64,000 nucleotides of DNA from Candidatus Poribacteria bacterium. GTDB taxonomy: Bacteria > Poribacteria > WGA-4E > GCA-2687025. A program made the translations under genes and the position numbers. The notes under the pieces were generated by a model that ran no database searches, was not told the DNA's origin, and saw only the letters and a list, made by a program, of their open reading frames with translations. The DNA lies in assembly GCA_963665845.2 (NCBI GenBank), contig OY762492.1, positions 1,312,001 through 1,376,000 on the forward strand. The letters are read 5' to 3'. Shown piece after piece: positions 1,859 through 22,759 of the stretch (positions are counted from its first letter, which is position 1; each line of letters opens with the position of its first letter).

Positions 1859-2899
1859 TCAATTCAACGGGGCTTTTAGTTCGGTCATCAAAACCCAGGG
1901 ATCGTCTGCGGTTCGGCGGTACCGCACCGTTGCGTTCAGCTCGGCGCCTTTCCGGCTTGCGCGGTTGAACGGAACGGCGATGACGCGCGTTTCGCCCGCC
2001 TTTAGCCGTATGTCCTTTGCCGCTGGTTGAACGGGCTTGCCTCCCTCGTCCAGCGGGTGTTGATGCGTCTCCCGCGCGTCATGGAGAACGGCGCCGCCCG
2101 CCGCTGCGATCCGTATGCGCAGCTCAATTTCACGCAGAGGCGCCGCCGGGACGGGATGATCCGCCGTGTTCGTTAAATACAGCTGAACGCCCTCCTCCGT
2201 CGTTTCATAATCCAAAAACAGCGCCGACTGCAGAAACTCTTCGCTGCGCGATCCCAAGAACGCATGCGAAGCGGAGCGCTTGATTTCAGCGCTGTACTGG
2301 CTCGGCTTCCGCTGCGTTTCCGGCATGTGGCACCGCTGGCATGTCTCTCTAGACCCTTCCGCCCGATCCTTCACCTGATTGTGCGCCGCAACCTTCGGCT
2401 GTCCATGACAGCTGCCGCACAACTTGATCTGGCGCGTATAGTAGACGTTGGACGCTTTCGTTTTATGAAACGGGGACGGGTCGTTGTAGGGACCTTTCAT
2501 GGCGCCGTCCGCGTCCAGATGGCATGTGAGGCAGTCGACGCCTGTCTCTTTGCCTTCGGCGCGCAGCAGCGGCATCGGGTACGGGTTCTCCTTCGTCAGC
2601 TTCGCTCCCGCGCCTGTGATGAGTATCGGCTGCGGGGCGTGGCACGGGTCGCATGCTGTCGGCGCATCCTCATACTCGGCGCGCAGCTGTTGATACAGCT
2701 TGCTTTCCCACGCCTGCGCATGCCCCGACGCATCCCACTCCTCCCAGATCTGTTGATGGCAGTCGGCGCATTTTCCCTCCTCCATATGCGCGCGCATCTC
2801 GTTCGCGTCAGGATAGGTCTTCTGCGCATGAAGAACCCATGCGGCGGCAAAGGCGAACAGCGCAGCGAAAACAGCGGCGGCGGCAAGTCGGGGTTTCAT
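1859..2899 (-). CDS. Multiheme (penta-heme) c-type cytochrome, exported
   Basis: Five CxxCH motifs (CADCH, CDPCH, CLTCH, CGSCH, CQRCH) and an N-terminal signal/anchor starting MKPRLAAAA. Confidence 0.85.
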   Translation of the reverse strand: MKPRLAAAAVFAALFAFAAAWVLHAQKTYPDANEMRAHMEEGKCADCHQQIWEEWDASGHAQAWESKLYQQLRAEYEDAPTACDPCHAPQPILITGAGAKLTKENPYPMPLLRAEGKETGVDCLTCHLDADGAMKGPYNDPSPFHKTKASNVYYTRQIKLCGSCHGQPKVAAHNQVKDRAEGSRETCQRCHMPETQRKPSQYSAEIKRSASHAFLGSRSEEFLQSALFLDYETTEEGVQLYLTNTADHPVPAAPLREIELRIRIAAAGGAVLHDARETHQHPLDEGGKPVQPAAKDIRLKAGETRVIAVPFNRASRKGAELNATVRYRRTADDPWVLMTELKAPLN

Positions 2900-2906
2900 C
2901 CCAGAA

Positions 2907-2935
2907 AGTATAATCGACCGCGCCCCTCCTGTCAT
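2907..2935 (-). promoter_or_regulatory. Putative sigma70 promoter, possibly giving a leaderless mRNA for the cytochrome
   Basis: ATGACA-17 bp-TATACT, with the -10 box only 7 nt before the ATG at 2899 and no RBS. Confidence 0.4.
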
Positions 2936-2944
2936 CCCGCGCCC

Positions 2945-3075
2945 CTGACCTTACGTTTTTAGTTGGAACATGCCGGCGGGCGGATGCGGACGGGTTTTGC
3001 GGAGCTTCAGATTCTCTCCCTGTCCCCATTTTCACGGGGACATGTTCGCAGGGTCATGGCTTGCGCAGGAATGAA
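2945..3075. repeat. Partial MITE-like/palindromic repeat element
   Basis: Begins CTGACCTTACGTTTTTAGTTGGAACA (same terminus as other copies); includes a TGTCCCCATTTTCACGGGGACA hairpin. Confidence 0.65.
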
Positions 3076-3113
3076 AAGACTGGCGGGGGTTTGTCCGCAG
3101 ATAGAAGGCGTCG

Positions 3114-3917
3114 TCAGCGCCGCCTGCCGTATTTGACATCCAGCTCCCGAAGACGCGCCAAAGCCTTTTCCGTCGGCTCCTTAAATTCGCCCGACTCATA
3201 AAAATCGCGCGTCTTTGCGTTCAGGTTGCCGTAGAAACGGCGCGTGGATTCGTTAGAACTGCCGCGCCAAAGCTCCGCCGGAATGATCGAATCTTCGCTT
3301 AAATACGGGCGGTCGGCGAACCCGTAATAAATCTGCGCCGTTTTGCGTTCGCGCTGCGTGGGGCGGGTCGTCGCCGTGTGGAGCGCGCCGATGTTGAAAA
3401 GGATGCCCGTTCCCGCTTCGCCGTACAGATCGCGCTTTCCGCCGCGCTCCAGCTGCGGATCGTTTTCAAGGATCGGCTCATCGACCGATTCGGGCGAGAT
3501 GGAAAAGCAGTGCGTCGTCTCGTCCACATCCGTAAAATACAGCATCAGCTGCAGAAAACCGACGCGCAGCGGATGCTCCATCCAGTGTCGCGGCCCGTCC
3601 CTGTGCCACGCCTGATGAAACTCGCCCTCGTAAGCCGCCATGTTGCGCAGGCAGATCTCCGAAAAGCATGGGTTTGGACCCATCAGCTGCCACAGCGCCT
3701 CCATCACAACGGGATGCCGCACAATGCGGTCGAACGCCGGCGAGGTGAATAAGGCGTCGCAGTTGACCGTCTGATGATGCCCGATCCGGTACCAGTGTCC
3801 GTTGGCGCGGTCGCGTTCAAACAGCGCCGTGAACTCCTCCACCTCAGCGTCGGTCAAGATTTTTCCCAGCGACGCGTATCCGTTCTGTTTAAAGAAATGC
3901 ATCTGGACGTCGGTCAT
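3114..3917 (-). CDS. Phytanoyl-CoA dioxygenase (PhyH) family Fe(II)/2-oxoglutarate oxygenase
   Basis: F..NGY..L..IL N-terminus, WHRD (HxD) and distal His (GALHTA). Start overlaps the stop of the upstream gene (ATGA). Confidence 0.85.
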   Translation of the reverse strand: MTDVQMHFFKQNGYASLGKILTDAEVEEFTALFERDRANGHWYRIGHHQTVNCDALFTSPAFDRIVRHPVVMEALWQLMGPNPCFSEICLRNMAAYEGEFHQAWHRDGPRHWMEHPLRVGFLQLMLYFTDVDETTHCFSISPESVDEPILENDPQLERGGKRDLYGEAGTGILFNIGALHTATTRPTQRERKTAQIYYGFADRPYLSEDSIIPAELWRGSSNESTRRFYGNLNAKTRDFYESGEFKEPTEKALARLRELDVKYGRRR

Positions 3918-4801
3918 GGGGTCTCCTCTTCGTTTGGGAGAATGCGCTGCCGGAGACGCGCCATCTCCCGTTCCACTTCCATATTTTGGACTCTCTGATC
4001 AAGCCCGCCGTTCAACTCCACGCCTTCGCCAGGGATGAATTGCGCTCTCATCTCAGCGATCGCCGCGTTCACTTCGTTATGGTCGTCCGCGACTTCATGC
4101 TGGATCATTGATGCCGCTTTTTTAAATCCTTCCTGCTGCTTCGCCGCTTTGATTTCCGCAATTTGTATCCGATAATCTTCCGCTTTCATCTCCATTTGGT
4201 TCAGAGCCTCTGAGCAGTCGTTGATGTTTTGGTCAATCAGCGCGCATAATTCTTCGGCGTTGGCTTTTCGGACGAGAAGGCGCCGCGCGTCGTCTTCCAG
4301 ATCGTCCCGCAAAAACTGCATGGCTGCCATTTCGTAATCCACGATGTTTTGCTGATGCTGACCCAATTCATCCCGCATCTCTTTCAATTTGGTTTGAAAT
4401 TGTTCGATCATGTTGACGAGGCGGATGCGAGCTTTGGATAATTGAAGGATCGCCTTATGGTATTTTTTCCTTCTGCTCACCCGCTGATTTTCTCGATGAA
4501 CAGACACGATCCGATAGACCGCCAATATGAAAATGAGAAGAAACAGCGCCGCGGCGGCATACGCTGCAACCTCGGCGAACCATGGGGAAGCAGGATCCGA
4601 CGCGATCGGAATCACGTATCTGAAGACCGTATAGACCTCTATGATGAACGAGAGCGCCGCCGCAAAGATCCACAACTCGAAGCGCGACTTATGGATGAAT
4701 TGCTTGATGCGCCGAAAACTCCTCTGAATTCGATACCGCAGCGAACCAGGCTTATTGGTCCAATCTCTCGGCAGTAAAGGCGGGAAATGCGGCAATTTCA
4801 T
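3914..4801 (-). CDS. Two-TM protein with PspA/IM30-like coiled-coil domain (Zorya-associated)
   Basis: Two hydrophobic helices at aa ~43-100, PspA-like segment AAMQFLRDDLEDDARRLLVRK, C-terminal VEREMARLRQRI, N-terminal MKLPHF. Confidence 0.6.
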   Translation of the reverse strand: MKLPHFPPLLPRDWTNKPGSLRYRIQRSFRRIKQFIHKSRFELWIFAAALSFIIEVYTVFRYVIPIASDPASPWFAEVAAYAAAALFLLIFILAVYRIVSVHRENQRVSRRKKYHKAILQLSKARIRLVNMIEQFQTKLKEMRDELGQHQQNIVDYEMAAMQFLRDDLEDDARRLLVRKANAEELCALIDQNINDCSEALNQMEMKAEDYRIQIAEIKAAKQQEGFKKAASMIQHEVADDHNEVNAAIAEMRAQFIPGEGVELNGGLDQRVQNMEVEREMARLRQRILPNEEETP

Positions 4802-6027
4802 TCGGATAAATCTTTCGCAAGCTCCATGATGTTGCGCATCTGATTGACGAGCGGACCGTAATCCTGCGTAAACTGTTTGGCGATTTGAGAAAGCTGTTCA
4901 TGCAGCTCATTCATCGATCTGGTCAACGCCGCTTCCGTCGCCTTTTCGAGAGAATGCAACGCATCCGCGCGTTCTCTGATCATCGCATCGATCGAATCGC
5001 CCGCCTTAACCGCGCCGGACTGGAGCGCCGCATTCACCTCCTCTTGGCTCTGTAGTATCAACTCGCGCTGATCCTGCATCCCTGTGTTGATCTCATTCGC
5101 CGCTTCTGTAAACGCCTCGATGGCGCTCATCATCAGAGGCGTGGAGGCGTTTAGGTTTTCGGTTCCTTTCTGAATTGCATGCTGCGCAGGTTCAAGCATA
5201 TCGGCGGCTAGATTAGCCGATTCCACAATCTGCGCAGTTCCTCTCTCCATCTGCGTGACGATCGAATCGAGTCCTGTCAGCGCATGCTCTAGCCGCTCTG
5301 CAATCGTTGAAAACCGTTCGCTTCTTTCAACGACGCTTGTCAGCGTCTGTTCGCAAGCGTCAAGCGCCATGACAGCGCGTTCGATCTGCGCAGTTTGCTC
5401 CTGAATCATCTGCTGATGCTGCCGCTGCCACTCCAGCAAATTGTTGGTTGATTCCGCCAATTTGCGAAAACTTTCTCCGCACTGCCTGCTGATTTCGGCG
5501 TTGAATTTATCGATTGTGCCGGCGAGCGCTTTTTCAATCGCTTTGGCGCATTTTTCAGACACCTCCGCTTCAAACGCTTTTATGTCGCTGCGCATCACTT
5601 GGACTTCGGCGGTGAGCGTCGATACGCCCTCTTTCACCGTTGCGACAATCTCGGCCATACCCGCGTTCCCTTCCGCGAGGGATTCGGAGATCGATTTGAT
5701 CATGACGACCGCTTCCGGCGGTTTTTCATAGGCTTTGGCATGGACAATCTTGAGCAAAACCGCCGTACCCATTCCAAACACGGAGGTGATGAAGGCGAAG
5801 CGCAGCCCCGACAGCAGACTTTGGACGCTGCCCACAAGATTCGCGTTCGGCGCGGACGGGCTGATATTTAAGCCGAAGAGACCGACGCAGATGCCGACGA
5901 ACGTTCCAAGCACGCCCAGCATCGTCGCCAGATTCGGGAGCCGCTCCTTCTGCTCCAACCTTCGATTTGCCAATAGGACGATCAGAACGATCCCTGCGCA
6001 CCAGGCGATAGAAAACGTTAGGTTCAT
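4798..6027 (-). CDS. zorA: ZorA-like (MotA/TolQ/ExbB family) protein, copy 3, 409 aa
   Basis: Three TM helices with LGVLGTFVGI and GLRFAFITSVFG, a helical tail and the conserved tip F..DYGPL. Confidence 0.8.
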   Translation of the reverse strand: MNLTFSIAWCAGIVLIVLLANRRLEQKERLPNLATMLGVLGTFVGICVGLFGLNISPSAPNANLVGSVQSLLSGLRFAFITSVFGMGTAVLLKIVHAKAYEKPPEAVVMIKSISESLAEGNAGMAEIVATVKEGVSTLTAEVQVMRSDIKAFEAEVSEKCAKAIEKALAGTIDKFNAEISRQCGESFRKLAESTNNLLEWQRQHQQMIQEQTAQIERAVMALDACEQTLTSVVERSERFSTIAERLEHALTGLDSIVTQMERGTAQIVESANLAADMLEPAQHAIQKGTENLNASTPLMMSAIEAFTEAANEINTGMQDQRELILQSQEEVNAALQSGAVKAGDSIDAMIRERADALHSLEKATEAALTRSMNELHEQLSQIAKQFTQDYGPLVNQMRNIMELAKDLSE

Positions 6028-6061
6028 GTGCGATCCGTTATTGAAGTTGTCAGATTAAATT

Positions 6062-6853
6062 TCATTGACTGCGCCATTTTTCCAGATATTTTTTGATCTT
6101 TTCGACGACGCCCTCAATCTCTTTCAGTTTCTTTTCCGAGTTGATTCGGACGCGAAACTCCACGCGGCGCGATTTAGACGGGTCTTCATGATTGCCGCTC
6201 TGGGCAATCAGTTTTCCGCCGCTGTCCAGAAGCTTGCTGGACGATAAACCGTTGGCGGTCAGTTTGCTCAATATCCATGCTTGATCGTTCTGAACCGCCT
6301 CTTTTTCGAGTCCGATCACATATTCTAGGACGGAGCGGGTTCGATCCTGCGACAGCTCCATGTTGTTGATGTAGGCGATTCTGGACGTCTCGGCGCCTTC
6401 CCACTCGCTGGATGTATGCCCCTCAATTCGAATCTCTTCAATGTGTCCGCGGAATTTTGAATCGGATACAACCGCAATATACCGCGGAAAAAATTCGTCC
6501 ATGATGCGGAGAAATTTCTCTGGCAGTCTGGAGCTTCCCCTTTCAAAAAACTCTTCAGGGTTAAAGCGTATGTACAGCGTTTCTCGGTCAAGGCTGGCGT
6601 TCCATTTTTCCAGGTCCGCCTCAAATTCACTGTTTAGAGCCTTGTATAACTCATCCTGTAAATCGCGGTGAGATTCTGAAATATCCTTAACATCTTCAAC
6701 CAGCCCCTGAGCGTCCTTCGTTTTCTGCACCGCGTCCACCATGAAACTGATGGCGACAAAAAGAAAAATCACCATCAGCCCCGCCATCATGTCCGATATT
6801 GAAATCCATTGACCCTCGCGCTGATTGTCGGAGGCGCCTAAAAAGGTGCGCAT
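6062..6853 (-). CDS. zorB: ZorB-like (MotB/OmpA family) protein, copy 4
   Basis: GQWISISDMMAGLMVIFLF TM with conserved Asp; OmpA-like domain with IRIEGHTS, LSQDRTRSV, SRRVEFR. Confidence 0.88.
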   Translation of the reverse strand: MRTFLGASDNQREGQWISISDMMAGLMVIFLFVAISFMVDAVQKTKDAQGLVEDVKDISESHRDLQDELYKALNSEFEADLEKWNASLDRETLYIRFNPEEFFERGSSRLPEKFLRIMDEFFPRYIAVVSDSKFRGHIEEIRIEGHTSSEWEGAETSRIAYINNMELSQDRTRSVLEYVIGLEKEAVQNDQAWILSKLTANGLSSSKLLDSGGKLIAQSGNHEDPSKSRRVEFRVRINSEKKLKEIEGVVEKIKKYLEKWRSQ

Positions 6854-6909
6854 CGTTCAATCCCTAGTTTGCGTTAAAATGCCTGCTTGAAAATGCGTCT
6901 GCGCGTCGG

Positions 6910-7551
6910 TCATACGGCGTCCTCCCCGCTGGGTTGAAGGCGTTCTCGGAGACGCGTCATCTCCTGTTCCACCAGCTCATCCGGTTCGTTCGCCGGCGCC
7001 TTGTTCAGCTCGCGCTCCAGCCCCTTCTTCTCCGCTTTGATGTCCATCTCATGCGCGATGCCGCTGCGCCTGTTCTGCGTCTGCGCCGCCTCATGTTTCA
7101 GTATCCACATCTCATGCTGCCGTTTTAACCGTTCAATTTCAAACATATCTTCGTCGTTGCTCATCTTCATCGCCGCCGTCAACGTTTCAATGGAGCGTAT
7201 GTCGTCTTCGATTCGTTCGCATGCCTCCAGCGCCGTCAGTTTGAGTCGGAGATGTTTCTTCGCGTTCTGCTCTTCGTCTAGCAATAGGGCGTTTTCCGCC
7301 GCTTTTTGCGCCTGTTCCGCCTTCCGTTCGTTTTTTTTCAATTCCTCGCGCCAATGCGCTACCGTCTTGTTCGCCTCGCGGATAAATCTTCTCCGCTCCC
7401 CGATCTTTTTGACGCCGTTGACGATCGCCCCTAAGAATTTCTTGTCTGTTTTGGAGGAACGGCGCGGCGCCTGTTTCGGCCAAGGGGATGTCGCCATCCG
7501 TTTGCGCAAACCGGCAAAGTGTCGGTTTTGTCCAAAATCCGGCAGCTTCAT
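6910..7551 (-). CDS. Soluble PspA/IM30-like coiled-coil protein with ZorE-like N-terminal peptide
   Basis: N-terminus MKLPDFGQNRHFAGLRKRM resembles ZorE MKLPNFREHARLNLLRRAM; AAENALLLDEEQNAKKHLRLK and C-terminal VEQEMTRLRERL are PspA-like; ATGA-coupled to zorA. Confidence 0.6.
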   Translation of the reverse strand: MKLPDFGQNRHFAGLRKRMATSPWPKQAPRRSSKTDKKFLGAIVNGVKKIGERRRFIREANKTVAHWREELKKNERKAEQAQKAAENALLLDEEQNAKKHLRLKLTALEACERIEDDIRSIETLTAAMKMSNDEDMFEIERLKRQHEMWILKHEAAQTQNRRSGIAHEMDIKAEKKGLERELNKAPANEPDELVEQEMTRLRERLQPSGEDAV

Positions 7552-9053
7552 TCTAAATCCTTCGCCATCTGAACCACCTCGCGCAGCCTTTCGGTCAGCG
7601 GTCCGTAATCGTCCACAAACTTTTCCGACAGCTCCGCCAACTGACGACCCAGCGTGATCAGCGACTGCTTCAGCGCCGCCTCAAGACTTTTCTCCAGATT
7701 GTTCAACGCCCGCGCCCGCTCCATGAACAGCCGATCCACGCTCTCGCCGATCTTTTCAGCCGCCGCGGCGACCGCTTTATTCATGCCGGCGATGTTTTCA
7801 TCCACCTTCGGCAGCTCGCGGTTCGCCGAGGAGGCGGCGTCCGCAAACGCTTTCCATTCGTCCGTCAAACGGGAGGCGCCGTCGGTCAACGCTTTCAGCG
7901 CCGGCGCTAGTTCCCGCGCCGGCTCCTCCACCGCCGCCAGCGTTTCCTGCCGCGCGGACATATGCTGAATAACCGCCTCTAGACGCTCCGCGGTCTCGAC
8001 AAACAGACCGCTTTGCGCGACCAGTTTGCCCATCGCCCCTTGAATCTCCGAAAGCGCCTGCGAACCCGCCTCCAGCGCCTCTTGCGAGCGGCGGCTCCGT
8101 TCGTCTAGGTTTTTGCTGATTTCGTCCGCCGCCGTTTGAAACGCGCCTGACGCCTGCTTTAAACCGCTCTCTAGCTGTGGAATCGTTTGACCGGCTGTTT
8201 TGGCTGAATCGGCGACGGACCGAAACTCGCCGCCCAGATTGCCCGCCCCTTCCCGCAGCGCTTCCAGCGCCGACGCCAGCTGCGCCGCCGGCTCAACGAG
8301 GCGCGCGATGCGCTCCTCCCGCGTCTCCAGCTCCTCCAATGCGCCGTCCAGACGATCCGCGATGGACGCGAACGCGCCGCTGCGCTCCACAAACGCGCTC
8401 ATCGCCTCCTCCGACGCCTTCAGCGCCGCGATGGAGGCGTCCAGCTGCTTCGACTGCTCCTCCACCTGTTTTGCATGCGCCGTCTGCCATAGATGAAGAC
8501 GGCCGGCAGTGTCGTTCAGCTGACGAAAACTCTCGGCGCATTGGGCGTTGATCTCGGCGTTGAAACCCTCGACAAGGCTCTCCATCGCGGCGGTCAGCGC
8601 CGCCGCCGATTTATCGGCAACCTCCGCCTCAAAGGTTTTGAAATCGCCGCGCAGCTTCTCCGACTGGTCAATGAGGCGCGCGTTGCCGTCGTTGAGCGCC
8701 TGAACAAGCGCGTCCAGCCGCTCCGTCAACGGCTCCAGCGGATCGGACGCATCCTCGTCCGTTTGCTTCATTTTAAGAAAGACGGCGGTACCCATGCCGA
8801 ATACAGAGGTGATGAAGGCGAAGCGGAGACCGTTTAAAAGGCTGCTGGCGCCTTTCTCCAGCTGGGCGATGCCGCCCGTTTCGGACAGCTGAATCCCAAG
8901 CAGGCTCCAACAGACGCCGACGAAGGTGCCGAGAACGCCCAGCATCGTCGCCAGATGCGGCAGCCGCTCTTTTTCCACATTCGGTTTGCGGCTTAGCCAA
9001 AAGACCGCCGCGACGATGCCGACGCACCAGAGAGCGGGAAAAAGATAGTTCAT
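7548..9053 (-). CDS. zorA: ZorA-like protein, copy 2, 501 aa
   Basis: LATMLGVLGTFVGV and GLRFAFITSVFG TM motifs; long helical tail ending KFVDDYGPLTERLREVVQMAKDLE. Confidence 0.82.
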   Translation of the reverse strand: MNYLFPALWCVGIVAAVFWLSRKPNVEKERLPHLATMLGVLGTFVGVCWSLLGIQLSETGGIAQLEKGASSLLNGLRFAFITSVFGMGTAVFLKMKQTDEDASDPLEPLTERLDALVQALNDGNARLIDQSEKLRGDFKTFEAEVADKSAAALTAAMESLVEGFNAEINAQCAESFRQLNDTAGRLHLWQTAHAKQVEEQSKQLDASIAALKASEEAMSAFVERSGAFASIADRLDGALEELETREERIARLVEPAAQLASALEALREGAGNLGGEFRSVADSAKTAGQTIPQLESGLKQASGAFQTAADEISKNLDERSRRSQEALEAGSQALSEIQGAMGKLVAQSGLFVETAERLEAVIQHMSARQETLAAVEEPARELAPALKALTDGASRLTDEWKAFADAASSANRELPKVDENIAGMNKAVAAAAEKIGESVDRLFMERARALNNLEKSLEAALKQSLITLGRQLAELSEKFVDDYGPLTERLREVVQMAKDLE

Positions 9054-9062
9054 TCGCGCGTC

Positions 9063-9884
9063 TCAATCGGCGTCAAAGTTTCCCTGCGCCTCCTTGAATT
9101 CGTCATACAGCTCTTCGATCATCTCGATGCGTTTTTCGGCGCTGATGCGGACGCGGAACTCAACGCGCCGCGACCGCCGCTTGTCTTCGCCCTTGCCGCT
9201 TATTTTAATCAGATTTCCGTTCCTGTCCAACCGCTTGCTGAACGACAAGCCGTTCGCGGTCATGCGGTCTTGGATCCATTCCAGGTTGTCTCTCACGACG
9301 CGCTTTGGAATCTGCAGAACATATTGGAGCGTTGAACGGGTGCGGTCTTGGGACAGCTGCATGTTGAAAAAATACGCCTCATCGGGCGAGGCGCTTTCGT
9401 TCCATTCGCTGGAGGTATGCCCCTCAATGCGTATCTCTTCGATGTCGCCCCGATACTTCTCCTGGGCGAGAATATGCACATAGCGCGGGAAAAAGTCGTC
9501 CAGTATCGCGCGAAAACCAGCCGGCAGACGCGAGCTGCCCTGCCGAAAAAGCATGCCGGGGTCCTGAAACCGAATCGAAAGCGTGTCGGGATCGATCTCG
9601 GCGTTCCACTTTTGGAGATCGTTTGTCCGCTCAAATTCTTGGCGCAGGTCTTGCAGCAGCTCCTTCTGAAGATTGCGGTAGGTTTCCGCCGCCTCCTGGA
9701 CGCTGTCGCGCTGGCGTTCGGCTGTTTTCCGCTGCCTGTCCGCCTCCGCTTTTTTCTGCGCCGCGTCGATCATAAAACTGATTGCAATGAACAGAAAAAC
9801 CGCCATCAGCACGGTCATCATATCGGAGATGGAGAGCCACTGTCCCTCGTTTTGATCGGGGTTTCGGCGGAAGAGATTGCGCAT
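9063..9884 (-). CDS. zorB: ZorB-like protein, copy 3
   Basis: GQWLSISDMMTVLMAVFLF, IRIEGHTS, LSQDRTRS, SRRVEFR. Start is ATG 9884 or TTG 9890. Confidence 0.88.
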   Translation of the reverse strand: MRNLFRRNPDQNEGQWLSISDMMTVLMAVFLFIAISFMIDAAQKKAEADRQRKTAERQRDSVQEAAETYRNLQKELLQDLRQEFERTNDLQKWNAEIDPDTLSIRFQDPGMLFRQGSSRLPAGFRAILDDFFPRYVHILAQEKYRGDIEEIRIEGHTSSEWNESASPDEAYFFNMQLSQDRTRSTLQYVLQIPKRVVRDNLEWIQDRMTANGLSFSKRLDRNGNLIKISGKGEDKRRSRRVEFRVRISAEKRIEMIEELYDEFKEAQGNFDAD

Positions 9885-9899
9885 CGTCAAGACATCCCC

Positions 9900-10718
9900 C
9901 TAGCGTCCGGCGGATACTGGATTCCTCGCCATGTGACCATGTCCAGGCTGCTTTCGGTGGCACCAATGGCACAAAGCCTTCAGGTTGGTGCGGTCGTTGT
10001 TCGCCTTATTTCCGTCGATGTGGTGAACATGCAGACGTTGTCTCTGTACTCGGAAATTAATTAGGCATTGTTCACATACCCACCCGACAGACTCCCGGTA
10101 TTGGAGCGATATTTCATGCCAATCTTCTGGATATACGTTGGCAGGGGCTGTTTCGTTATTGTGCAGCGGGAGCCATGTGGTCGGCGTTTCCCGATACATC
10201 TCAAAAAACTCATCCAGCCTGAAATTACGATAGATTTCGTCCCAATCCCGTCCGTATTGGCGATAGCCTTTATACCGCAGCTTAGCGAGGCAGTTTTTAC
10301 AGACATTCAAGCGGACATGTTCGGTTTGGACGCCGGCGTACCCGTTGTTAACATTGATCTGGAAGATGCCGTCTGTCCGATTTGAGACGACATATCGATG
10401 CCCTCTACCGCCCTTGATCATGCCACTGAGCGTTCCGCAGTGCGCGATGTGAAATTTCGGTCTTGATCCTAAGGAGCTGACATCGCGGATATAGATCAGC
10501 ACCCTCTCTCCATTGATCGCGAGAGTGCCGTCAGATCCTATGACGAGATCATCGGGGTTCACCTCCAGGCCTTCGCGAGACGCGAGCGTTTTACGAAGCT
10601 CGTTCGGGTCCAGGGATTTCCATCCGGCCCCGCCTCGTTCCTGCTCCACATATTCGGCGCCCATCGCGCGGCGCAGGAGATTCAGACGCGCATGTTCACG
10701 GAAATTGGGCAGCTTCAT
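9900..10718 (-). CDS. zorE: HNH endonuclease, Zorya type II effector ZorE-like
   Basis: PKFHIAHCGTL, RYVV..R.DG.F and VCKNCL motifs; C-terminal CEQC...LHVHHIDGNKANN...NLKALCHWCH HNH; lies downstream of zorAB. Confidence 0.85.
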   Translation of the reverse strand: MKLPNFREHARLNLLRRAMGAEYVEQERGGAGWKSLDPNELRKTLASREGLEVNPDDLVIGSDGTLAINGERVLIYIRDVSSLGSRPKFHIAHCGTLSGMIKGGRGHRYVVSNRTDGIFQINVNNGYAGVQTEHVRLNVCKNCLAKLRYKGYRQYGRDWDEIYRNFRLDEFFEMYRETPTTWLPLHNNETAPANVYPEDWHEISLQYRESVGWVCEQCLINFRVQRQRLHVHHIDGNKANNDRTNLKALCHWCHRKQPGHGHMARNPVSAGR

Positions 10719-11425
10719 TATGCAATTCCTCCCTCTTCGACAATGCGGGTGATGCGCTTCTCGGCGTTGATGGCGATTCGGAATTCAAGGCGGCGCGACC
10801 GCATTTTGTCCTCGTTTCCGTTTTTCAGCAAGCGCGGTTTGCTTGATGAAAGCCCGTTGGCGGTCAGTCGGCTTAGCATCCACTGCCGCTCTCTGGGTAT
10901 CGGCGTACGCGAGATGCCCAGGACAAATTCCAACGCGGCGCGGGCGCGGTTTTGGGTCAGCTCCATGTTGCGGATATACGCCTCTTCAGAGGTTGCAGTT
11001 TTGCTCCAGTCGCTGGATGTGTGCGCTTCAATGCGTATTTCTTTGATGGCGTCCCGATACTTTTCGCGGGCGAGTATCCGTATGTAACGCGGGAAGAAAT
11101 CGTCCAGGATCGCGCGCAGCGGCGTTTGAAGCTTTGAGGCTTCTGCTTGAAAGAGCATGTCGGGCGTTTGAAAACGCACCGAAAGGGCGACGGCGTCCAG
11201 CTCGGCTTGCCACTCGTCCAGATCGTTTCTGAATTCATCGTAGAGATCTTTGTACAGACCTGCCTGAAGACGTTGATGGCCAACGGCAATCGCCTTGAGT
11301 CCATCTCGAACGCTCTCCGCTCTCTTTCTTTGGGTACGCTCACGGATCAGCGAGCCGATGAGGACGATAAGGATTGCGACAGCAAAAACCCCCATGCTTT
11401 CAACCGGCATATTCTCAAAAGGCAT
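10718..11425 (-). CDS. Degenerate ZorB paralog (copy 2) lacking the W.S.SD ion-binding motif
   Basis: OmpA-like domain close to 11501-12253 (DDFFPRYIRILA, LTANGLSSSK, SRRLEFR), but the TM is GVFAVAILIVLIGSLI with no Asp, and EGHT is replaced by EAHT. Confidence 0.8.
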   Translation of the reverse strand: MPFENMPVESMGVFAVAILIVLIGSLIRERTQRKRAESVRDGLKAIAVGHQRLQAGLYKDLYDEFRNDLDEWQAELDAVALSVRFQTPDMLFQAEASKLQTPLRAILDDFFPRYIRILAREKYRDAIKEIRIEAHTSSDWSKTATSEEAYIRNMELTQNRARAALEFVLGISRTPIPRERQWMLSRLTANGLSSSKPRLLKNGNEDKMRSRRLEFRIAINAEKRITRIVEEGGIA

Positions 11426-11500
11426 ACGGCGCCTTTCTACGAGTTTCGGATGCCGGCAAGGAGCCGACTCCTGTAAAAGCGCGAGCCAGGTTTGAGCGCG

Positions 11501-12253
11501 TCATTCAACGATTCCTCCCTCTTGGATAATGCGGACGATCTGTTCCTCGGCGTTCGTACGGACGCGAAACTCAACGCGCCGAGACTGTATTTTATCTTCT
11601 TCGTCGCCATTTTTGAAGCGGAGCTTGCTGGACGAAAGCCCGTTGGCGGTCAAATGCTTCTTGACCCAATCCCGCTCTTTCGGCATCGGAGATTTCTGGA
11701 TATTTAAGACGTGCTTTAACACGGCGCGCGTCCGATCCTGGGACAGTTTCATGTTTAGAATATATGCCTTATCCTGCGAAACGGACACATTCCACTCGCT
11801 GGACGTATGCCCTTCAATGCGTATCTCTTCGATGTCGTCCCGATATTTTTCCTGATCGTCCAGGGCGAGAATTCGAATATAGCGCGGGAAGAAATCGTCC
11901 AGGATGCCTTCAAACCGCTCCTGAAGATCTGCTTTTCCTATCTCAAAAAGAACGTCCGGCGCACGAAAACGCACCGAGAGCGTCGGCTTGTCGATGGTGG
12001 CGTCCCACTCGTCTAGATTGTCTTTGAACTCATCAAGCAGATCGTTGTACAGATCGTTCTGAAGACGCTGGTAGGTGACGGCGATCTCTTTGATGCTGTC
12101 TCTTTCCACCTCGATTTTGTTCTTTTTCTCCTGCGCGTCCAGCATGAAACTGAGCGCGACAAACAGGAAAATCACCATGAGACCGGCCATCATGTCGGAG
12201 ATGGAGATCCATTGTCCCTCGTCCTGCTGTTCGGGAAGCTGCTGGTCATTCAT
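11501..12253 (-). CDS. zorB: ZorB (MotB/OmpA family), copy 1
   Basis: GQWISISDMMAGLMVIFLF, IRIEGHTSSEW, LSQDRTRAV, SRRVEFRV; directly follows zorA. Confidence 0.9.
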   Translation of the reverse strand: MNDQQLPEQQDEGQWISISDMMAGLMVIFLFVALSFMLDAQEKKNKIEVERDSIKEIAVTYQRLQNDLYNDLLDEFKDNLDEWDATIDKPTLSVRFRAPDVLFEIGKADLQERFEGILDDFFPRYIRILALDDQEKYRDDIEEIRIEGHTSSEWNVSVSQDKAYILNMKLSQDRTRAVLKHVLNIQKSPMPKERDWVKKHLTANGLSSSKLRFKNGDEEDKIQSRRVEFRVRTNAEEQIVRIIQEGGIVE

Positions 12254-12287
12254 CGTTCAAACCTTCCATTTTCATCGCTTGAGCGGT

Positions 12288-14741
12288 TCAAGATCGGCTC
12301 CGAGAAGTCGCCGACGATCTTGGCGGGGAGGGGTCCTCTAAACCTTCCGCTATCCGCACAACTCTGCGCAGTTGCTCCGTAAGCGGCGTGTAATCTTGAA
12401 CAAACCTTGTCGAAAGCGACACCAGCTGACTCGCAAGTGAATTGAGCGCTTTGGTAAGCTCTTCGCCGAGCGCATTGTCCAGCTCCTCCGTCTGCTTCGC
12501 CATGTTTTCGCCTGCCGTTCTGACGAATTCCGCTATATGGTTGCTCATCTGCGTTGCGGATTCTGTGACGCGCCGGTTCATGGCATTGTGAGCTTGCTCA
12601 ATCCGTTGGCTTGTGTTGTTGACGCTGAGCAGAGCTTCGGCGGCGGCGCTTGAGATGGATCCGCTAGCGTTCTGGACGCTTTCGCTCATCTCGGCTTGAA
12701 CTCTCTGAAATTCCGTTATCAGCTCCATCTGGCTTTTCATGTTTTCAAGCGCATCCGCGGCGGCGCTGACAAATCCATTGACAGCGGCTTTGATCTGTTC
12801 ATTGACAGTCTCTTGGGTTTGCGCGATTTGATACCGCTGGTTCGCCATACTTGCGAACGCGCTGTCCGCGGCGTTTTTGAATCCGTCCGCGGTCGCTTCG
12901 ATTTGTGCGTTCACGTTCGTTTGCGTCTGTTCGATCTGCGTTCGCTGGTTTTCCATGCTCGTCAGCGCCGTTTGAGTCGATTTCTCAAATCCAGCCGCTG
13001 TTTGCTCAATGCGGCTTTGCTGCGTTTTCAGACCCTCAACCGACGCTTCAGCGGCGTCCTTGAATCCATCCGCCGCTTCTTGTATCTGCGCATTCACACC
13101 CTGCTGAAACGACTGCATCTGATTTCTCTGCTGACTCATGCTGTCAAGCGACGCCGCAACCGATTGTTGAAAATCTGCCGCCGTTTGCTTTACTCCTGCA
13201 TTGACGGCATCTTGATTTTCTTTAATTCGTTCGCGCTGCTTGTCCATACTCTCAACCGACGCATCAACCGATTTTTTGAATTCGTCTGCGGCATTCGTCA
13301 CCCCCGAGTTGACGATCTCTTGATTCTTTTCAATCAGTTCGCGCTGACCATCCATGCTCGCCAATGACGCATCAACCGAATTCTTGAAGCCAGCCGCTGT
13401 CTCCTGTATCTGCGCGCCAACCTGCTTCTGGTTTTCCGCCATCAACGTCTGCTGTTCCTCCAGGCTCGTTTTCAGTTGGGCGTTCACCTGTTCCTGATTC
13501 TTTTCCAGCTGACCAGCTTGATTCTTGATACTTTCCAACGCGGCGCCGGCGGATTCCGTAAACCCGTTCGCCGTTTCCTGTATCTGCGCGCCGACCTGCT
13601 TCTGGTTTTCAGCCATCAATGTCTGCTGTTCCTCCAGGCTGGTTTTCAGTTGGGCGTTCACCTGCGCCTGATTCTTTTCCAGCTGGTCAGCTTGATTCTC
13701 GATACTTTTCATTGCGGCGCCGGCGGATTCCGTAAATCCATTCGCCGTTGTCGTCAGCCCGCTTGTGATCTGCTCAATGTTCTGCTGTATCGATGGGAAG
13801 GCGCTTTCCGCCCGTTCGCCGAGATTCGCCAGCGCCGCAAGATGCGCGTTCATCGCCTCGTTGCGCGCGCTTAGATCGCCCAGCGCCTCGTCTAGCCGGT
13901 CGGCGACGCCCGCAAACGTCTCGCTCCGCTCAACGACGACTCCCATCGACTCCTTACAGCTCTCCAGCGCCTCCATCGACTGCCGCAGCTGCCCGACCAT
14001 CGCCTCCACCTGCTCCTTGTAGTTTTCCTGCCAAGTGAGCAGCTGCCCGACCGCTTCATTGAGCTGCTTGAAGTTGTCGCCGAACTGCTCATTGATTTTG
14101 GCGTTGAAATCGCGCATCACCTCCTCCAGCGCCTCAATGAGCGCCTTGGAGTTGTTCTCCGCCATCGATTCGGCAAACTCCCGAAATTCCTTGATGAGAT
14201 CGTCCTGCTTGTCGGAAAAGGTTGTGCGCATCTTCTGCATCTGCGTCAACAGGGTTGTGTCGCCTTCACCGGTCAGGGCGCGCTCCACCGCCCCGATCTT
14301 GTTTAAAAGCGTCGACTCGCCCTCTCCCGTGACCGCATTCGCGACCGCCGCCGTGTTTTCGTTGATTTCCTGAAAGCCGTTCTTCAGTAGATCGGCAAGC
14401 GTGTCAAGCGTGGCGCCTTCCGTCGCCTGTCCCTCTGTCTTGCCCCGCCCCGAGATCTTGCCCAGAAAGAATCCTCTCAGTACGACTGCAGTAAGAATTC
14501 CAGCTACGGAGGTGATGAACGCAGTACTGAGACCCTCCAGCAGACCAGGTATGCTGCCGTTGATGTCCGCTACGTCGAATCCCCGTAGCCCGTACAGGAT
14601 TCCTCCGAAGGTTCCGAGAATGCCTAAGACCGTCGCAAAGTTGGGAATGGACGCTCTGTGAGGATTCCCCCGCAGCCGAATCGCAAGGATGATTGAAACA
14701 ACGATGATGAACGCGCTATACGCCAGCGCTAAGTTCAGCAT
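12288..14741 (-). CDS. zorA: ZorA with very long repetitive helical tail, copy 1, 817 aa
   Basis: Three TMs (LGILGTFGGI, GLSTAFITSVAG), DFNAKINEQFGDNFKQLN..V..L..WQ motif and a ~700 aa Gln/Ala-rich tail. Confidence 0.9.
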   Translation of the reverse strand: MLNLALAYSAFIIVVSIILAIRLRGNPHRASIPNFATVLGILGTFGGILYGLRGFDVADINGSIPGLLEGLSTAFITSVAGILTAVVLRGFFLGKISGRGKTEGQATEGATLDTLADLLKNGFQEINENTAAVANAVTGEGESTLLNKIGAVERALTGEGDTTLLTQMQKMRTTFSDKQDDLIKEFREFAESMAENNSKALIEALEEVMRDFNAKINEQFGDNFKQLNEAVGQLLTWQENYKEQVEAMVGQLRQSMEALESCKESMGVVVERSETFAGVADRLDEALGDLSARNEAMNAHLAALANLGERAESAFPSIQQNIEQITSGLTTTANGFTESAGAAMKSIENQADQLEKNQAQVNAQLKTSLEEQQTLMAENQKQVGAQIQETANGFTESAGAALESIKNQAGQLEKNQEQVNAQLKTSLEEQQTLMAENQKQVGAQIQETAAGFKNSVDASLASMDGQRELIEKNQEIVNSGVTNAADEFKKSVDASVESMDKQRERIKENQDAVNAGVKQTAADFQQSVAASLDSMSQQRNQMQSFQQGVNAQIQEAADGFKDAAEASVEGLKTQQSRIEQTAAGFEKSTQTALTSMENQRTQIEQTQTNVNAQIEATADGFKNAADSAFASMANQRYQIAQTQETVNEQIKAAVNGFVSAAADALENMKSQMELITEFQRVQAEMSESVQNASGSISSAAAEALLSVNNTSQRIEQAHNAMNRRVTESATQMSNHIAEFVRTAGENMAKQTEELDNALGEELTKALNSLASQLVSLSTRFVQDYTPLTEQLRRVVRIAEGLEDPSPPRSSATSRSRS
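13403..13749. repeat. 174-bp (58 aa) near-perfect tandem repeat inside zorA
   Basis: CCTGTATCTGCGCGCC at 13403 and 13577; peptide TANGFTESAGAA...NAQLKTSLEEQQTLMAENQKQVGAQIQE occurs twice. Confidence 0.95.
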
Positions 14742-14774
14742 TGAAATCTTCTCCGAATGTAAGGTTAAGTTTAA

Positions 14775-14803
14775 AGTTTAGCGTTAAACGCTGTCGGCGT
14801 CAA
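14775..14803 (-). promoter_or_regulatory. sigma70 promoter of the Zorya operon with a palindromic candidate operator
   Basis: TTGACG-17 bp-TAAACT; palindrome AGCGTT-A-AACGCT at 14780-14792; GGAG RBS at 14751-14754. Confidence 0.7.
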
Positions 14804-14857
14804 GGGTAACGGGCTGATGTTGACGCAATGCGAACGCGGACGGTTTCCGCGCAGGAA

Positions 14858-17800
14858 TTACGAGGCGGGGGAGCGCGGCGCCTTCAAAACGACCCCCCAT
14901 TCGCCCAAAGCCCAGACCGCCGCGCCGTCTTCCGACACGGCTAAAAAGCGCAGGGCGTATTGGACAGGGGAGCGCAGTTTCTGCCATGTCTCTCCGCCGT
15001 CCGTTGTATGGAGAATGACGCCGTCGTTTCCGACCGCATACGCCTCCTTCTCCGACAGCGCCTCAACCCAGTTCAAGTCGCTTGAGAGACCGCTCTTCTG
15101 CTTTGTCCATGCGGCGCCGATGTCTTCCGTCCGCAGAATGATTCCGTATTGCCCGACCGCCCATCCGACGCGGGGCGACGCGGCGCAAACGCTGTTCAAG
15201 GAGTATGCCGTGCCGCTCTCCTGGTCTCGCCAGCGCGTTCCGCCGGAGGAGCTGTGCAGCATGATGCCGCGCGAACCCGCGATCCATCCGTAGCCGAACC
15301 GGTCGAGGTGAACGGAGCGCAGGTCGTATCCTTCGCCTTTCATCTGCCGTTCCCATTCGGGTCCGCCGTCTGGGTTATGGACGATGACGCCGCCCTGTCC
15401 GACCGCCCAGGTTTCGCCGAAGCCGGACATGAACCCGCCGTTGAGTCGGACGCGCCCCTGCAGCGGCTCCGATTCCAGCGGCGTCCATCCGAAGCCGTCT
15501 TCGGTGAAGAGATGCGACCCGGCGGCGTCCAACGCCCATCCGAAACCGCGCCCTTTGCTTGCCCAGTGCATGGCGATGATGCTGGGTCCGCCGCTTTTCT
15601 GCTCTGTCCATGTTTGTCCGCCGTCTGCCGTGTGGATAATCAGCCCGTCTTCGCCTGCCGCCCATCCTTCGTCTGTCGACAGAAACCGACCCGCGCCGAG
15701 AGCCTGCGGCGAGCTTTCAACGAGCGTATCCCATGACGCGCCGCCGTCCGTCGTTTTATAGAGCCGCCCGCCTTCTGCCGCCCAGCCTTGCGAGGGCGAC
15801 AGAAAATAGGTCGACGCAAAACGCTCCGTCCCGGCGGGCGACCAGCTCTGCCCTCCGTTCAGCGTGAAATAGGCGCGCCCCTGACGCTGCGCCGCCCATG
15901 CGGTCTGTTCATCCAAGACGCGCGCCTTCTGCATGCCGAGCAGGCGGCGCCTTCCTCCCGACTCCCAGGTCTCTCCGTCCCTTGTGATGAGCGTCTCTCC
16001 GCTGGATGAGATCGTCATTCCGTTCGTTGGGGTAAAGAAGAGTATTGCCGCCGGCGTCTGCGCAGGTTTTGCCTGTATCGCCCAGGTTTCGCCGCCGTCG
16101 CGCGTGTGGAGAATGAAGCCGCCTTCGCCTCTCTGCGGGGCGACCGCCCATCCATGCGTCGGCGAGACGAAAAAGAGCGTTCGGACCGCCGCGTTCGTCG
16201 CCGCGGTGTCCTTATGGAGCCATGTTTGTCCGCCGTCGTTGGTGCGCAGGATCGTCCCATGCCCTGCGCTGATCCAGGCATGCCGCGCGTCTAAAACGAA
16301 CAGGTCGGTGAAACGCTGGCGCGCCGAGGAGTTTTGATATTCCCATGTTTCGCCGCCGTCTTTGGTGGCGAGTATCGTTCCTTCGCCGCCGATCGCCCAG
16401 CCATGCATATCGTCCGCGAAGGCGACGCGGGTCAAGCGGTTCTGGACGCCCGATTCGCGCGGCTCCCAGGTCTTTCCGCCGTCGTTCGTCAAGGCGATCA
16501 TGCCGTTCAAGCCGACGGCGGCGCCGCGCGTCTCGTTGGCAAAGGCGACGTCCAGAAACTGGGTCGGCCATGCGCTGACGCGGACAACCTCCCAGCCCGC
16601 CTCCAGTTCGGGTACGCGCGGCGGCTCTTCGACGGTTGGGCGCGTCTGCGCGATCACATCGTCCAGCGTCCCCTGGTCAGGTTTGATGTCGGGCGTGTAG
16701 CGGATGACGATTCCGCCCTGTCCGACCGCGACGACGCCTTGGGAGGAGACGGCAAAATCGAGCAGATCGTTCTCGGAGCCGCTTTCGTTTTGAATCCATA
16801 TTTCGCCGCCGTTGACGGTGGTCAGAAGCATGCCGTCGTCCCCGATCGCCATCCCCCAATACTCGTTCAGGAAGAAGACGCGGTTTAGGTTCGTGAGCGT
16901 TCCGCTGGCTTGAAACGCCCATGTGTCGCCGCCGTCTTTAGTGTGCAGTATTTCGCCTTCCTGCCCGACGATCCATCCGACATTTTGGTTCACAAAATGC
17001 AAGCCGTAGAGTTCGTTGAAGGTGCCGCTGTCCTGCCGTTCCCAGGTCAGCCCGCCGTCCTGTGTGCGGTAGACGATGCCCGGCCATCCGACGATCCAGC
17101 CATGGTTTTGGTCAAGAAAGAAAACAGCGGTGAGCGTTTGAAACTCGAACGGCTTCTGGTTCGCCCAGTTGCGCCCGCCGTCCTTGGTGTAGATGATGGT
17201 GCCGAGATCGCCGACCGCCCAGCCGCGGTTCGCGTCTAAAAAGAAAACGCCGTTCAGTTGGAACCCCATGCCGCCTGTTTGGTAACGCCATGTTTTTCCG
17301 CCGTCTACGGTGTTCATGACGATGCCGCGTTCGCCGACCGCCCAGCCGCGCAGTTCGTCGATGAAGGCGACGCTTTTGAGCGTGTCGACCTGCCCCGTTT
17401 TCTGTTCCACCCATGTTTTTCCGCCGTCTTCGGAAGTGAGCAGCGTCCCGCCCGTTCCGACGGCGATGGCGCGTTCGTCCGACACAAATTCAACCGATTC
17501 AAGATGGTGCGCCATGACGGCTCCGCTGACCGTGTTCCAGGTTTTCCCGCCGTCTTCAGAGTGGAGAATGACGCCGTACCATCCGCATGCCCATGCTTCG
17601 TTTTTGGAGACGAATTGAATGTCGGTCAGGTTTGTTTGATAGCCGCTGTTGCGGAGCGTCCATGTGTCGCCGCCGTCGTCGGTTTGGGAGATATGTCCGC
17701 CGTTTGCGACGGCGGCGCCGTTTCGGTCGTCCCAGAAGTCGATGCCGTTGACCGAGAAGCGCACATGGTCGGTGAACGGGATTCGGCTGTCTTGGCGTTC

Positions 17801-18862: not shown

Positions 18863-19864
18863 CTACTCTTTGATAAAGTCGGAGCGCTTCCAGGTGGTGA
18901 AATCGCCGGCGCTCCATCGCGACAGCTCCACATAAAAAAGCGAGTCGGAAGACCGCGCCGCGTAATTCTCCTCCTCCTCCGTTTTCCGTCCGATTCGAAT
19001 AGTGCGCGTTTCCGTTTCGATTTCCTTCTCCGCCGTATCTTCAGACGCCTCCTCGTTGGACGCGCCCGTCTCAACGGCGATCTCTAGCGAGACGACCGCC
19101 GCGGGATTGCTGAACCCGTATTCAGGTTTCTCCTCTTTGCCGAGCGGCTTCGTCATGCGCATCGGCGACAGGCGGTTCAACAGCGTCGACATCTTCGCAT
19201 CGTCGAACGTTTCATTGGAGCGGAGACCTTTTAGGGTCCAAGCGTCTGCCTCCCCGCGTTCAAAGACGATCCGCCCCTCGTCGTTTTTGAGCGCGATTGT
19301 CTGTAAGGCGTCTTTGTCCACCTTAAAATACTCCGTATCGACCCAAGAGGACATATCGGTTCCCGCCTGCCAGCTGGACAGATCGTCCGCGATATAGGTT
19401 TCGTTCTCGCCCTCCAGGCGCGCATGCGCCGACCGCGCCCCAAACGCGGAGCCGATGTAGAGCGTCTTTGTTTTGCCGTCCGCTTCGATGGACGCTTTGC
19501 GTTCAAACTCGTTTTCCGCCACTTTCAACTGCTTATGGCTTTTCTTTGTGCGCGCGATGAGCTGTTTTTTGACGATCCCGGCAATCTTGTCTAAGAATTC
19601 GCCCGCTTTGCCGCTGTCGACGGGGAAGTTGTCCGCGTCCGGCAAGACCCACTCGCCGTTCTCTTTGGCGAATGCGACCGCATTGCCTTCGCTGTCCTCA
19701 ATCGTCACCCGCTCCGCCTTTTCCCGAATGCCAGGGAGAAGAGGCTCGCTCGCCGCCTCGGACGATCCGCCGCGCGGCCAGTAGACGACCGCGATCAACA
19801 GCGCCTGAACGAGAACGGCTCCGATGAGTATCTGAAAACGCCGCCCCTTGAGATAAAACCTCAT
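18863..19864 (-). CDS. DUF4340 family protein (Gld-like ABC cluster)
   Basis: N-terminal TM from MRFYLKGRR; typical position downstream of a GldG-like gene; ATGA coupling. Confidence 0.75.
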   Translation of the reverse strand: MRFYLKGRRFQILIGAVLVQALLIAVVYWPRGGSSEAASEPLLPGIREKAERVTIEDSEGNAVAFAKENGEWVLPDADNFPVDSGKAGEFLDKIAGIVKKQLIARTKKSHKQLKVAENEFERKASIEADGKTKTLYIGSAFGARSAHARLEGENETYIADDLSSWQAGTDMSSWVDTEYFKVDKDALQTIALKNDEGRIVFERGEADAWTLKGLRSNETFDDAKMSTLLNRLSPMRMTKPLGKEEKPEYGFSNPAAVVSLEIAVETGASNEEASEDTAEKEIETETRTIRIGRKTEEEENYAARSSDSLFYVELSRWSAGDFTTWKRSDFIKE

Positions 19865-22752: not shown

Positions 22753-22759
22753 TGGACTC

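Follow-up and report, generated by a model that had tools for sequence, protein, structure and literature searches.

Why should a Zorya type II operon with one nuclease gene, zorE, encode three ZorA and four ZorB motor proteins and close two of its three modules with a gene of PspA/Vipp1 type? The question is raised by a 64,000-nucleotide (nt) stretch of a Candidatus Poribacteria genome (contig OY762492.1, positions 1,312,001 to 1,376,000), hereafter the window, in which ten open reading frames (ORFs), all uninterrupted and all on the minus strand, lie between 3914 and 14741. The locus is a real, selected and lineage-restricted new variant of Zorya II. What is new here, and the best clue to its mechanism, is that one of its two PspA-like proteins, X2, carries the N-terminal leader of ZorE. 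From the first gene to the last, the operon comprises:

12288..14741, minus strand: zorA1, 817 amino acids (aa), type II with a long tail (PADLOC ZorA2, E 3e-102)
11501..12253, minus strand: zorB1, 250 aa, with transmembrane (TM) Asp20, His149, Ser151 and Arg225
10718..11425, minus strand: zorB1', 235 aa, an atypical zorB1 paralogue
9900..10718, minus strand: zorE, 272 aa, HNH nuclease (PADLOC ZorE2, E 4e-80)
9063..9890, minus strand: zorB2, 275 aa (273 counted from ATG), TM Asp, His, Ser and Arg kept
7548..9053, minus strand: zorA2, 501 aa, type II
6910..7551, minus strand: X2, 213 aa, ZorE leader, linker and PspA/Vipp1-like helices 1-5, no TM segment
6062..6853, minus strand: zorB3, 263 aa, TM Asp, His, Ser and Arg kept
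4798..6027, minus strand: zorA3, 409 aa, type II
3914..4801, minus strand: X3, 295 aa, leader eroded to MKLPxF, TM helices predicted at 41-59 and 78-96, PspA-like body

Module 1 (zorA1-zorB1-zorB1'-zorE) is followed by zorB2-zorA2-X2 and zorB3-zorA3-X3, with intergenic gaps from zorA1 through X3 of 34, 75, -1, 9, 9, -4, 56, 34 and -4 nt. Three junctions within the run overlap, as do X3 and the following phyH gene (-4 nt). A preliminary description of this DNA had reported the same packed minus-strand run with several overlaps, the B-A order of the extra modules and a block richer in AT than its flanks, all of which was borne out; the guanine-cytosine (GC) content of the block is 0.548, against 0.597 ± 0.013 in 362 equal-size segments of the genome, none of which is as low. 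An assembly artefact was rejected, because one Logan contig of run X2 (a run label, distinct from the protein) spans 2500-15500 in one piece with 0 differences, and the contigs of a second sample (run X4) tile the stretch identically; run X2 may be the source of the same DNA.

The proteins, called here A1 to A3 and B1, B1', B2 and B3, were compared with known motor families. The PADLOC type II models ZorA2 and ZorB2 are the top matches of three of three A proteins (E 9e-46 to 3e-102) and four of four B proteins (E 4e-65 to 1e-92), respectively, and with the ZorE2 match this upholds the earlier count of three ZorA, four ZorB and an HNH nuclease. The NCBIfam ranking agrees with Zorya II, but the best scores stay below the equivalog cut-offs (NF041792, NF041787 and NF041791: 174.8 of 700, 242.4 of 400 and 164.8 of 600 bits) of models built for close E. 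coli-like members. Two proteins, B1 and A2, were queried against solved structures, and type II chains of PDB 8VVI came out nearest (8vvi_A, E 1e-46, and 8vvi_F, E 1e-23). An identity as MotAB, ExbBD or TolQR, the clustering that would speak against the Zorya II assignment of the preliminary description, was rejected: ZorB2 is matched at E 1e-53 to 1e-72 and MotB models at 1e-3 to 1e-7, while Pfam MotA_ExbB reaches merely 4e-5 to 0.01.

Residues mutated in E. coli were taken from the available text of PMC11890865 and bioRxiv 10.64898/2026.05.12.724681. The equivalents of ZorB D24, H141, S143 and R215 are retained in B1, B2 and B3, and ZorE retains 10 of the 12 residues mutated in print, E99 and H235 being changed. 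B1' is a ZorB by its PADLOC match but atypical in detail, as it is without the W.S.SDMM motif and aligns Glu9 at the Asp column, with the peptidoglycan-binding His, Ser and Arg retained. Speculatively, B1' could pair with another ZorB in a mixed dimer and so tune motor 1.

A quick tree of 44 ZorB proteins has a branch (support 82) that separates the six of this genome and of the related locus L032 from the rest, within the ZorE-associated group; the motor expansion therefore seems to have taken place within the lineage. In the same tree, B3 is the sister of B2 (95 in the Shimodaira-Hasegawa-like approximate likelihood ratio test, SH-aLRT) and B1' groups with B1 (90); as the branches are long, these groupings are provisional. 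Module 3 as a recent tandem copy of module 2 was rejected, since B3 is 51% identical to B2 whereas B2 is 87.5% identical to its orthologue in L032. The tail of A1, whose length varies among strains, contains a recent tandem duplication of 174 nt (58 aa), 91% identical, at residues 332-447 (window 13395-13749), with weaker repeats beyond.

Set beside the published Zorya II systems (S. kujiense ZorA5B2, PDB 8VVI, and E. coli ATCC 8739; PMC11890865), the locus has the same ZorA TM core, long tail and conserved tip, the same ZorB TM Asp and peptidoglycan-binding His, Ser and Arg, and the same ZorE HNH residues, and in module 1 the same A-B-E order with zorE downstream of zorAB. It differs in that a single run encodes three ZorA and four ZorB, the extra atypical ZorB among them, and in modules 2 and 3, whose order is B-A-X and whose last gene is PspA-like rather than zorE. 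Zorya types I (ZorABCD; PMC11946911) and III (ZorF/ZorG; PMC8565338), which with type II are the three known types summarised in the available parts of these sources, have the same motor family and the idea of a single core that works with exchangeable cytosolic partners. The PADLOC models for ZorC, ZorD, ZorF and ZorG found no match among the ten proteins.

The PspA/ESCRT-III family, to which the preliminary description had likened X2 and X3, is named after phage shock and known for stress repair. X2 and X3 are related to each other, as had been proposed (28% over 155 aa, E 1e-7), and singly they barely match any family: PADLOC gave neither a match better than E 0.009, and X3 alone reaches PspA at E 0.04. 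With a 12-sequence X profile, the top matches are Vipp1/PspA structures (6ZVR, E 2.7e-6), the alignment starting at Vipp1 residue 21. This residue lies after the end of helix 0. The profile aligns with the ordinary PspA family of the host at 97.9% in hhalign. The predicted model of X2 (predicted local distance difference test, pLDDT, 76) has helices at 10-21, 34-90, 94-162, 165-183 and 191-205, and in a Foldseek search with it the first 16 rows among the matches listed were all Vipp1/PspA (best E 1.6e-3, none at or below 0.001). A language-model atlas placed X2 in PspA-type clusters at 0.92 and X3 at just 0.82.

Helices 1-5 of the X proteins are collinear with those of PspA/IM30/Vipp1 (PDB 6ZVR, 4WHE, 7ABK; PF04012), including the hairpin with its A..A....E..AR turn, helix 4 and the C-terminal VE.E[LM]..LR helix 5, which are present in both proteins by profile, hhalign and models and, for X2, by Foldseek. 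By these profile and model comparisons, X2 and X3 are divergent PspA/Vipp1 homologues, as the preliminary description had it. They differ from the family in being encoded in a Zorya operon and at the N-terminus, where the PspA-type amphipathic helix 0, a membrane-binding element in PspA/Vipp1 (PMC4556811, available text), is absent from both: its position is taken by the ZorE leader in X2 and by a leader remnant with two TM helices in X3. The host keeps a separate, ordinary pspA (C1:2641856-2642503). Across 176 genomes of the phylum, the best non-X profile matches are PspA-like genes of the same family, and the X body groups with that family's own PspA (support 86); the sisterhood of X2 and X3, and with it a single origin of the two, has a support of 22 in the tree.

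The N-terminal leader and the ZorA tail tips are located as follows:

10656..10718, minus strand: N-terminal leader of ZorE, 21 codons
7489..7551, minus strand: ZorE-type leader on X2, 21 codons
12336..12485, minus strand: tail tip of A1, with the motif F..DY.PLT, a candidate docking site
7551..7700, minus strand: tail tip of A2
4804..4953, minus strand: tail tip of A3

The comparison set consisted of 28 ZorE proteins of other genera, which remained after G000 and G001 had been set aside from the 30 loci listed (69 genomes matched). All 28 begin as M.LP..F....L..L...[ML]G; the long version of this start was seen in 19 and the short one in 9. When 85,129 ORF starts of the genome were scored with a position-specific scoring matrix (PSSM) from the 19 long starts, X2 ranked first (27.7) and ZorE second (27.3), the third scoring 7.4; a hidden Markov model (HMM) from all 28 starts ranked ZorE first (27.4 bits) and X2 second (24.0 bits). 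X2 homologues score like X2 on the leader model, and a distant X3 homologue, P0008 (40% identical), has more of the leader left than X3 (16.1 bits). What X2 carries at the helix-0 position corresponds to exactly the first 20 residues of ZorE.

Both partners of the supposed contact are constrained. Among four X2 proteins the leader is 82% identical, against 50% in the linker behind it. Between the window and L032, the ratio of nonsynonymous to synonymous substitution rates (dN/dS) is 0.10 in the X2 leader (21 codons) and 0.39 in the PspA body, and likewise 0.10 in the last 62 residues of A2 (440-501) and 0.32 in its mid-tail. The F..DY tip motif is present in A1, A2 and A3. Of the 28 ZorE loci, 18 have it, 17 of these being among the 19 with a long leader (one of the other two has F..EY and one is unreadable), whereas a variant tip, FV.NY, is found in 8 of the 9 short-leader loci. 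No F..DY tip was found in the 20 readable loci of ZorC type (21 loci, one masked; third genes were scanned in 10 of the 21, all 10 being ZorC), and in type I loci of the phylum both the ZorA tip and the N-terminus of the effector differ. Among the 5 plasmid hits retrieved, of 12, those from Psychrobacter and Burkholderia combine this long type of leader with the F..DY type of tip.

Third genes behind 25 further zorB loci were of ZorE or ZorC type, with one that could not be assigned, and included no other leader-bearing effector. Several variants were seen in passing. The group L049-L051 and L053-L057 combines a shortened ZorE leader with the variant tip (FV.NY and extra residues), a natural orthogonal pair. 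L022, L024, L068-L085 and L087, widespread in the phylum, have a ZorB on the type II model and a ZorC-like third gene that starts with MNSA..LLQF. At L023:9157-10341, a 394-aa third gene behind zorAB is matched only by the N-terminal ZorE domain (residues 89-184). In the zorA-zorB pair of L086:1547-5770, ZorB is long (330 aa) and the tip motif is absent; neither ZorE nor ZorC follows, and the next ORF is of 609 aa.

Module 2 is found beyond the window. The layout of L032 is zorA1-zorB1-zorE-zorB2-zorA2-X2-phyH, and the same arrangement occurs in the same-genus genome G001 (L021). In L032, zorA1 has a 1-nt deletion and hence a frameshift, observed on a single contig and possibly an assembly error; zorB1' is absent. 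In record 23 of run X6, which belongs to another study, B1 and B1' (the latter with 69 differences over about 950 nt) are followed by 489 nt that stand where zorE would be, as observed on this single contig, then by B2, A2 and X2, and directly by the junction of the X3 end with phyH. Module 2 is intact in both cases, in which module 1 looks damaged. The dN/dS values of zorB2 (0.15), zorA2 (0.27) and X2 (0.35) compare with 0.23 for B1 and 0.38 for ZorE, and the X proteins diverge fast (66% identity between window and L032, against 93% for phyH). Sequence comparison thus indicates that module 2 is conserved within the genus under purifying selection.

For the role of this arrangement, published Zorya work provides the frame: the motor senses peptidoglycan, rotates by ion flow and recruits its effectors through the tail upon infection. 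In ZorA5B2, the ZorB Asp, peptidoglycan binding and the tail are all required, and ZorE is taken to the membrane on infection only (PMC11890865, available text); in type I, deletion of the tail tip abolishes the co-localisation of ZorD (PMC11946911, available text). We lean, at slightly under even confidence, to the reading that this is a Zorya II operon with duplicated motors, each extra one followed by a PspA/Vipp1 gene, in which the X2 leader docks on the ZorA tip and recruits a membrane-remodelling polymer beside the nickase. In this scheme zorA and zorB would have been duplicated within one Poribacteria lineage, the copies keeping the tail tip, and PspA copies would have acquired the ZorE leader as an address that binds the type II tip. 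A phage-activated motor would then gather X2, a predicted remodelling polymer, at the injection site as well as ZorE. X2, soluble, would be taken to the membrane by the motor instead of helix 0 and then polymerise; X3, already anchored through its two TM helices, would polymerise there. Most likely the membrane around the injection site would be sealed or constricted while ZorE nicks the DNA. A stronger version is possible but more tentative: the 20-residue leader would be a portable address for the ZorA II tip, and a nuclease-free ZorB-ZorA-PspA arm would close or sever the membrane at the injection site beside the nickase arm.

The preliminary description had given each motor its own effector. 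This is not supported over shared use: because the three tips are alike and the leaders of ZorE and X2 are alike, cross-recruitment is as plausible as private pairs, and there are three ZorA for four ZorB, with B1' atypical. The effectors may be shared between motors.

Several observations weigh against the proposed docking and its premises. X3 retains only the first six leader residues, MKLPxF (HMM rank 87, PSSM rank 1473). In E. coli, Vibrio and P. putida, ZorE starts with a leader of another kind (0.8-3.6 bits on the model), and the tips differ. Apart from one exception (L063), the short-leader loci form a single clade, so that the co-variation of leader and tip is not independent of descent; their co-occurrence can be explained by shared ancestry, and it is a lead and not a proof. 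The dN/dS values come from one genome pair and that of the leader from 21 codons. E. coli ZorB R230 is retained in none of the four B proteins. Pfam PF04012 matches neither X2 nor X3, their homologues reaching at best 16.2 bits against a gathering score of 33.9, and the VIA wide fold search was unspecific, hairpins of chemoreceptors, PspA and SMC proteins all scoring alike at Z 12-13. Pfam recognised no integrase and no other defence gene among the 35 flanking ORFs. According to the available text of PMC11329788, E. coli ZorE binds bilayers of phosphatidylethanolamine (PE) and cardiolipin without ZorAB, and co-synthesis of ZorAB gave no stronger signal.

This lipid binding suits a rather unlikely alternative, in which the leader is a membrane-binding helix that replaces helix 0, and X2 and X3 reach the membrane unaided, as co-expressed repair beside the motors with no recruitment by the tail. 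The leader does stand at the helix-0 position and is predicted to be helical at residues 10-21, X2 leaders have a net charge of +3 to +4, and X3, with its TM helices, has lost most of the leader. The hydrophobic moment of the leader, however, is ordinary (0.44 against a background of 0.47 ± 0.15; 0.59 in the host PspA) and does not single it out, and ZorE leaders average a charge of only +0.5. L3-P4 and F6 are invariant, which gives them the look of sequence-specific contacts, the A2 tip is equally constrained, leader type follows tip type, and the leader of the lipid-binding E. coli ZorE is itself of another type. The X proteins might also bind the tip as regulators or scaffolds of ZorE, as decoys that keep ZorE away from idle motors or as polymers that concentrate it, with extra motors that widen sensing and ZorE as sole effector; we consider this quite unlikely. 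PspA is a transcriptional and protein-binding regulator too, and a motif common to three tips together with a ZorE leader on X2 would lead one to expect competition. ZorE damages host DNA if over-active (PMC11890865, available text). But module 2 persists where zorE is seemingly replaced or zorA1 frameshifted, and purifying selection acts on the PspA body as a whole (0.39).

Modules 2 and 3 could, on a highly unlikely view, have been domesticated for envelope stress, the motor sensing wall or membrane deformation of any cause (for example in a host animal) and calling PspA-like repair with no role against phages. A single promoter-like site precedes the run that the modules share with zorE, the X proteins diverge fast, variable gene content among strains and a low GC resemble those of defence loci, and the host retains its own pspA; all of this speaks against domestication, whereas the fixed chromosomal site beside phyH among housekeeping genes, the grouping of the X body with PspA of the same family and the apparent damage to module 1 in two relatives speak for it. 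Very hard to credit is a set of decaying duplicates, with X genes as accidental fusions of a zorE start to pspA. The narrow range, the atypical B1', the eroded X3 leader and a phyH remnant from local rearrangement fit such decay, but the ten frames are open, the dN/dS of module 2 (0.15-0.35) is as low as that of B1 and ZorE, X3 has full-length homologues at 81, 80 and 40% identity, and B3 keeps its motor residues at 51% to B2. For module 2, by these comparisons, decay is unlikely; the absence of homologous neighbourhoods and the relaxed selection by which the preliminary description would have recognised it are contradicted by the same-genus neighbourhood and by the dN/dS values.

A literature search, with supplements and subscription papers outside its scope, found no Zorya system with PspA-like partners or repeated motors, in line with the preliminary description, which knew of none. 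That description holds as to Zorya II, the PspA homology and the conserved neighbourhood; it was without the shared ZorE leader and the narrow range. The X2 fusion beside an equally constrained ZorA tip points to the interface through which ZorAB of type II would recruit ZorE, and this can be tested with a peptide in any Zorya II with such a leader. Should the leader prove portable, other payloads could be coupled to ZorAB. If docking of X2 on the tip is correct, it would link a phage-sensing rotary motor to bacterial ESCRT-III proteins, a link not found in the literature searched.

The multi-module form was found in one genus among the 176 genomes searched. Clustered zorB copies were found in 2 of the 67 genomes matching ZorB2, a third case being one split gene. 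At L024:8184-12310, zorB lies in two halves about 3.2 kb apart, probably through an insertion. In large protein collections X2 has three other clusters and X3 three relatives, and X3 as a single-protein query was found in 1 of the 176 genomes. An X2 homologue and an X3 homologue each lie on 88,715-base contigs, which suggests that the three-module form occurs elsewhere. A metagenome scan with the X2 alignment gave 336 pattern matches, none confirmed, one with B2 gave three plain zorB-zorE loci, and X2 had no match in 72,556 plasmids.

Module 3 is bounded by two copies of a junction repeat, identical at 63 of 82 nt:

6891..6972, minus strand: copy 1, X2 3' end and remnant of the phyH start (about 6885-6913)
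3895..3976, minus strand: copy 2, X3 3' end and true phyH start

Module 3 was gained or lost by recombination at this junction, because the repeat spans each X 3' end and the phyH start and because record 23 of run X6 and run X5 make the same skip across the module. The spacer before zorB3 (6862-6895) resembles the spacer between zorA1 and zorB1 of L032 (L032:6040-6110) and has a few letters in common with the start of phyH, a possible microhomology at a module junction.

The remaining features flank the operon:

14775..14803, minus strand: sigma70-like promoter site TTGACG-17-TAAACT, 9/12 consensus match
3114..3917, minus strand: phyH-family dioxygenase (Pfam PF05721), overlapping the last X gene

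The single recognisable promoter reported earlier is weak by score, with 10 such sites in the scan against 5.2 ± 2.5 in shuffled sequences; it gains support from L032, where the sequence from the site through the leader to the ATG is kept despite different upstream DNA and a different upstream gene. The phyH gene occupies the same position in L032 and in record 23 of run X6, with a dN/dS of 0.09 (window vs L032). It is a fixed downstream neighbour and probably a host gene into which the transcript runs on. Downstream of phyH, L032 has a run of paralogous genes like outer-membrane beta-barrels (L032:11523-17687) that is absent there in the window. Those of the 35 flanking ORFs that Pfam names are housekeeping genes. 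Many unrelated contigs start or stop at 2934-3000, which suggests a short repeated element between phyH and a multiheme cytochrome gene. Just upstream of the operon, 14858-18499 encodes a 1213-aa secreted protein with many YCF48/BNR repeats, following a Gld-like ABC cluster (18863-23680).

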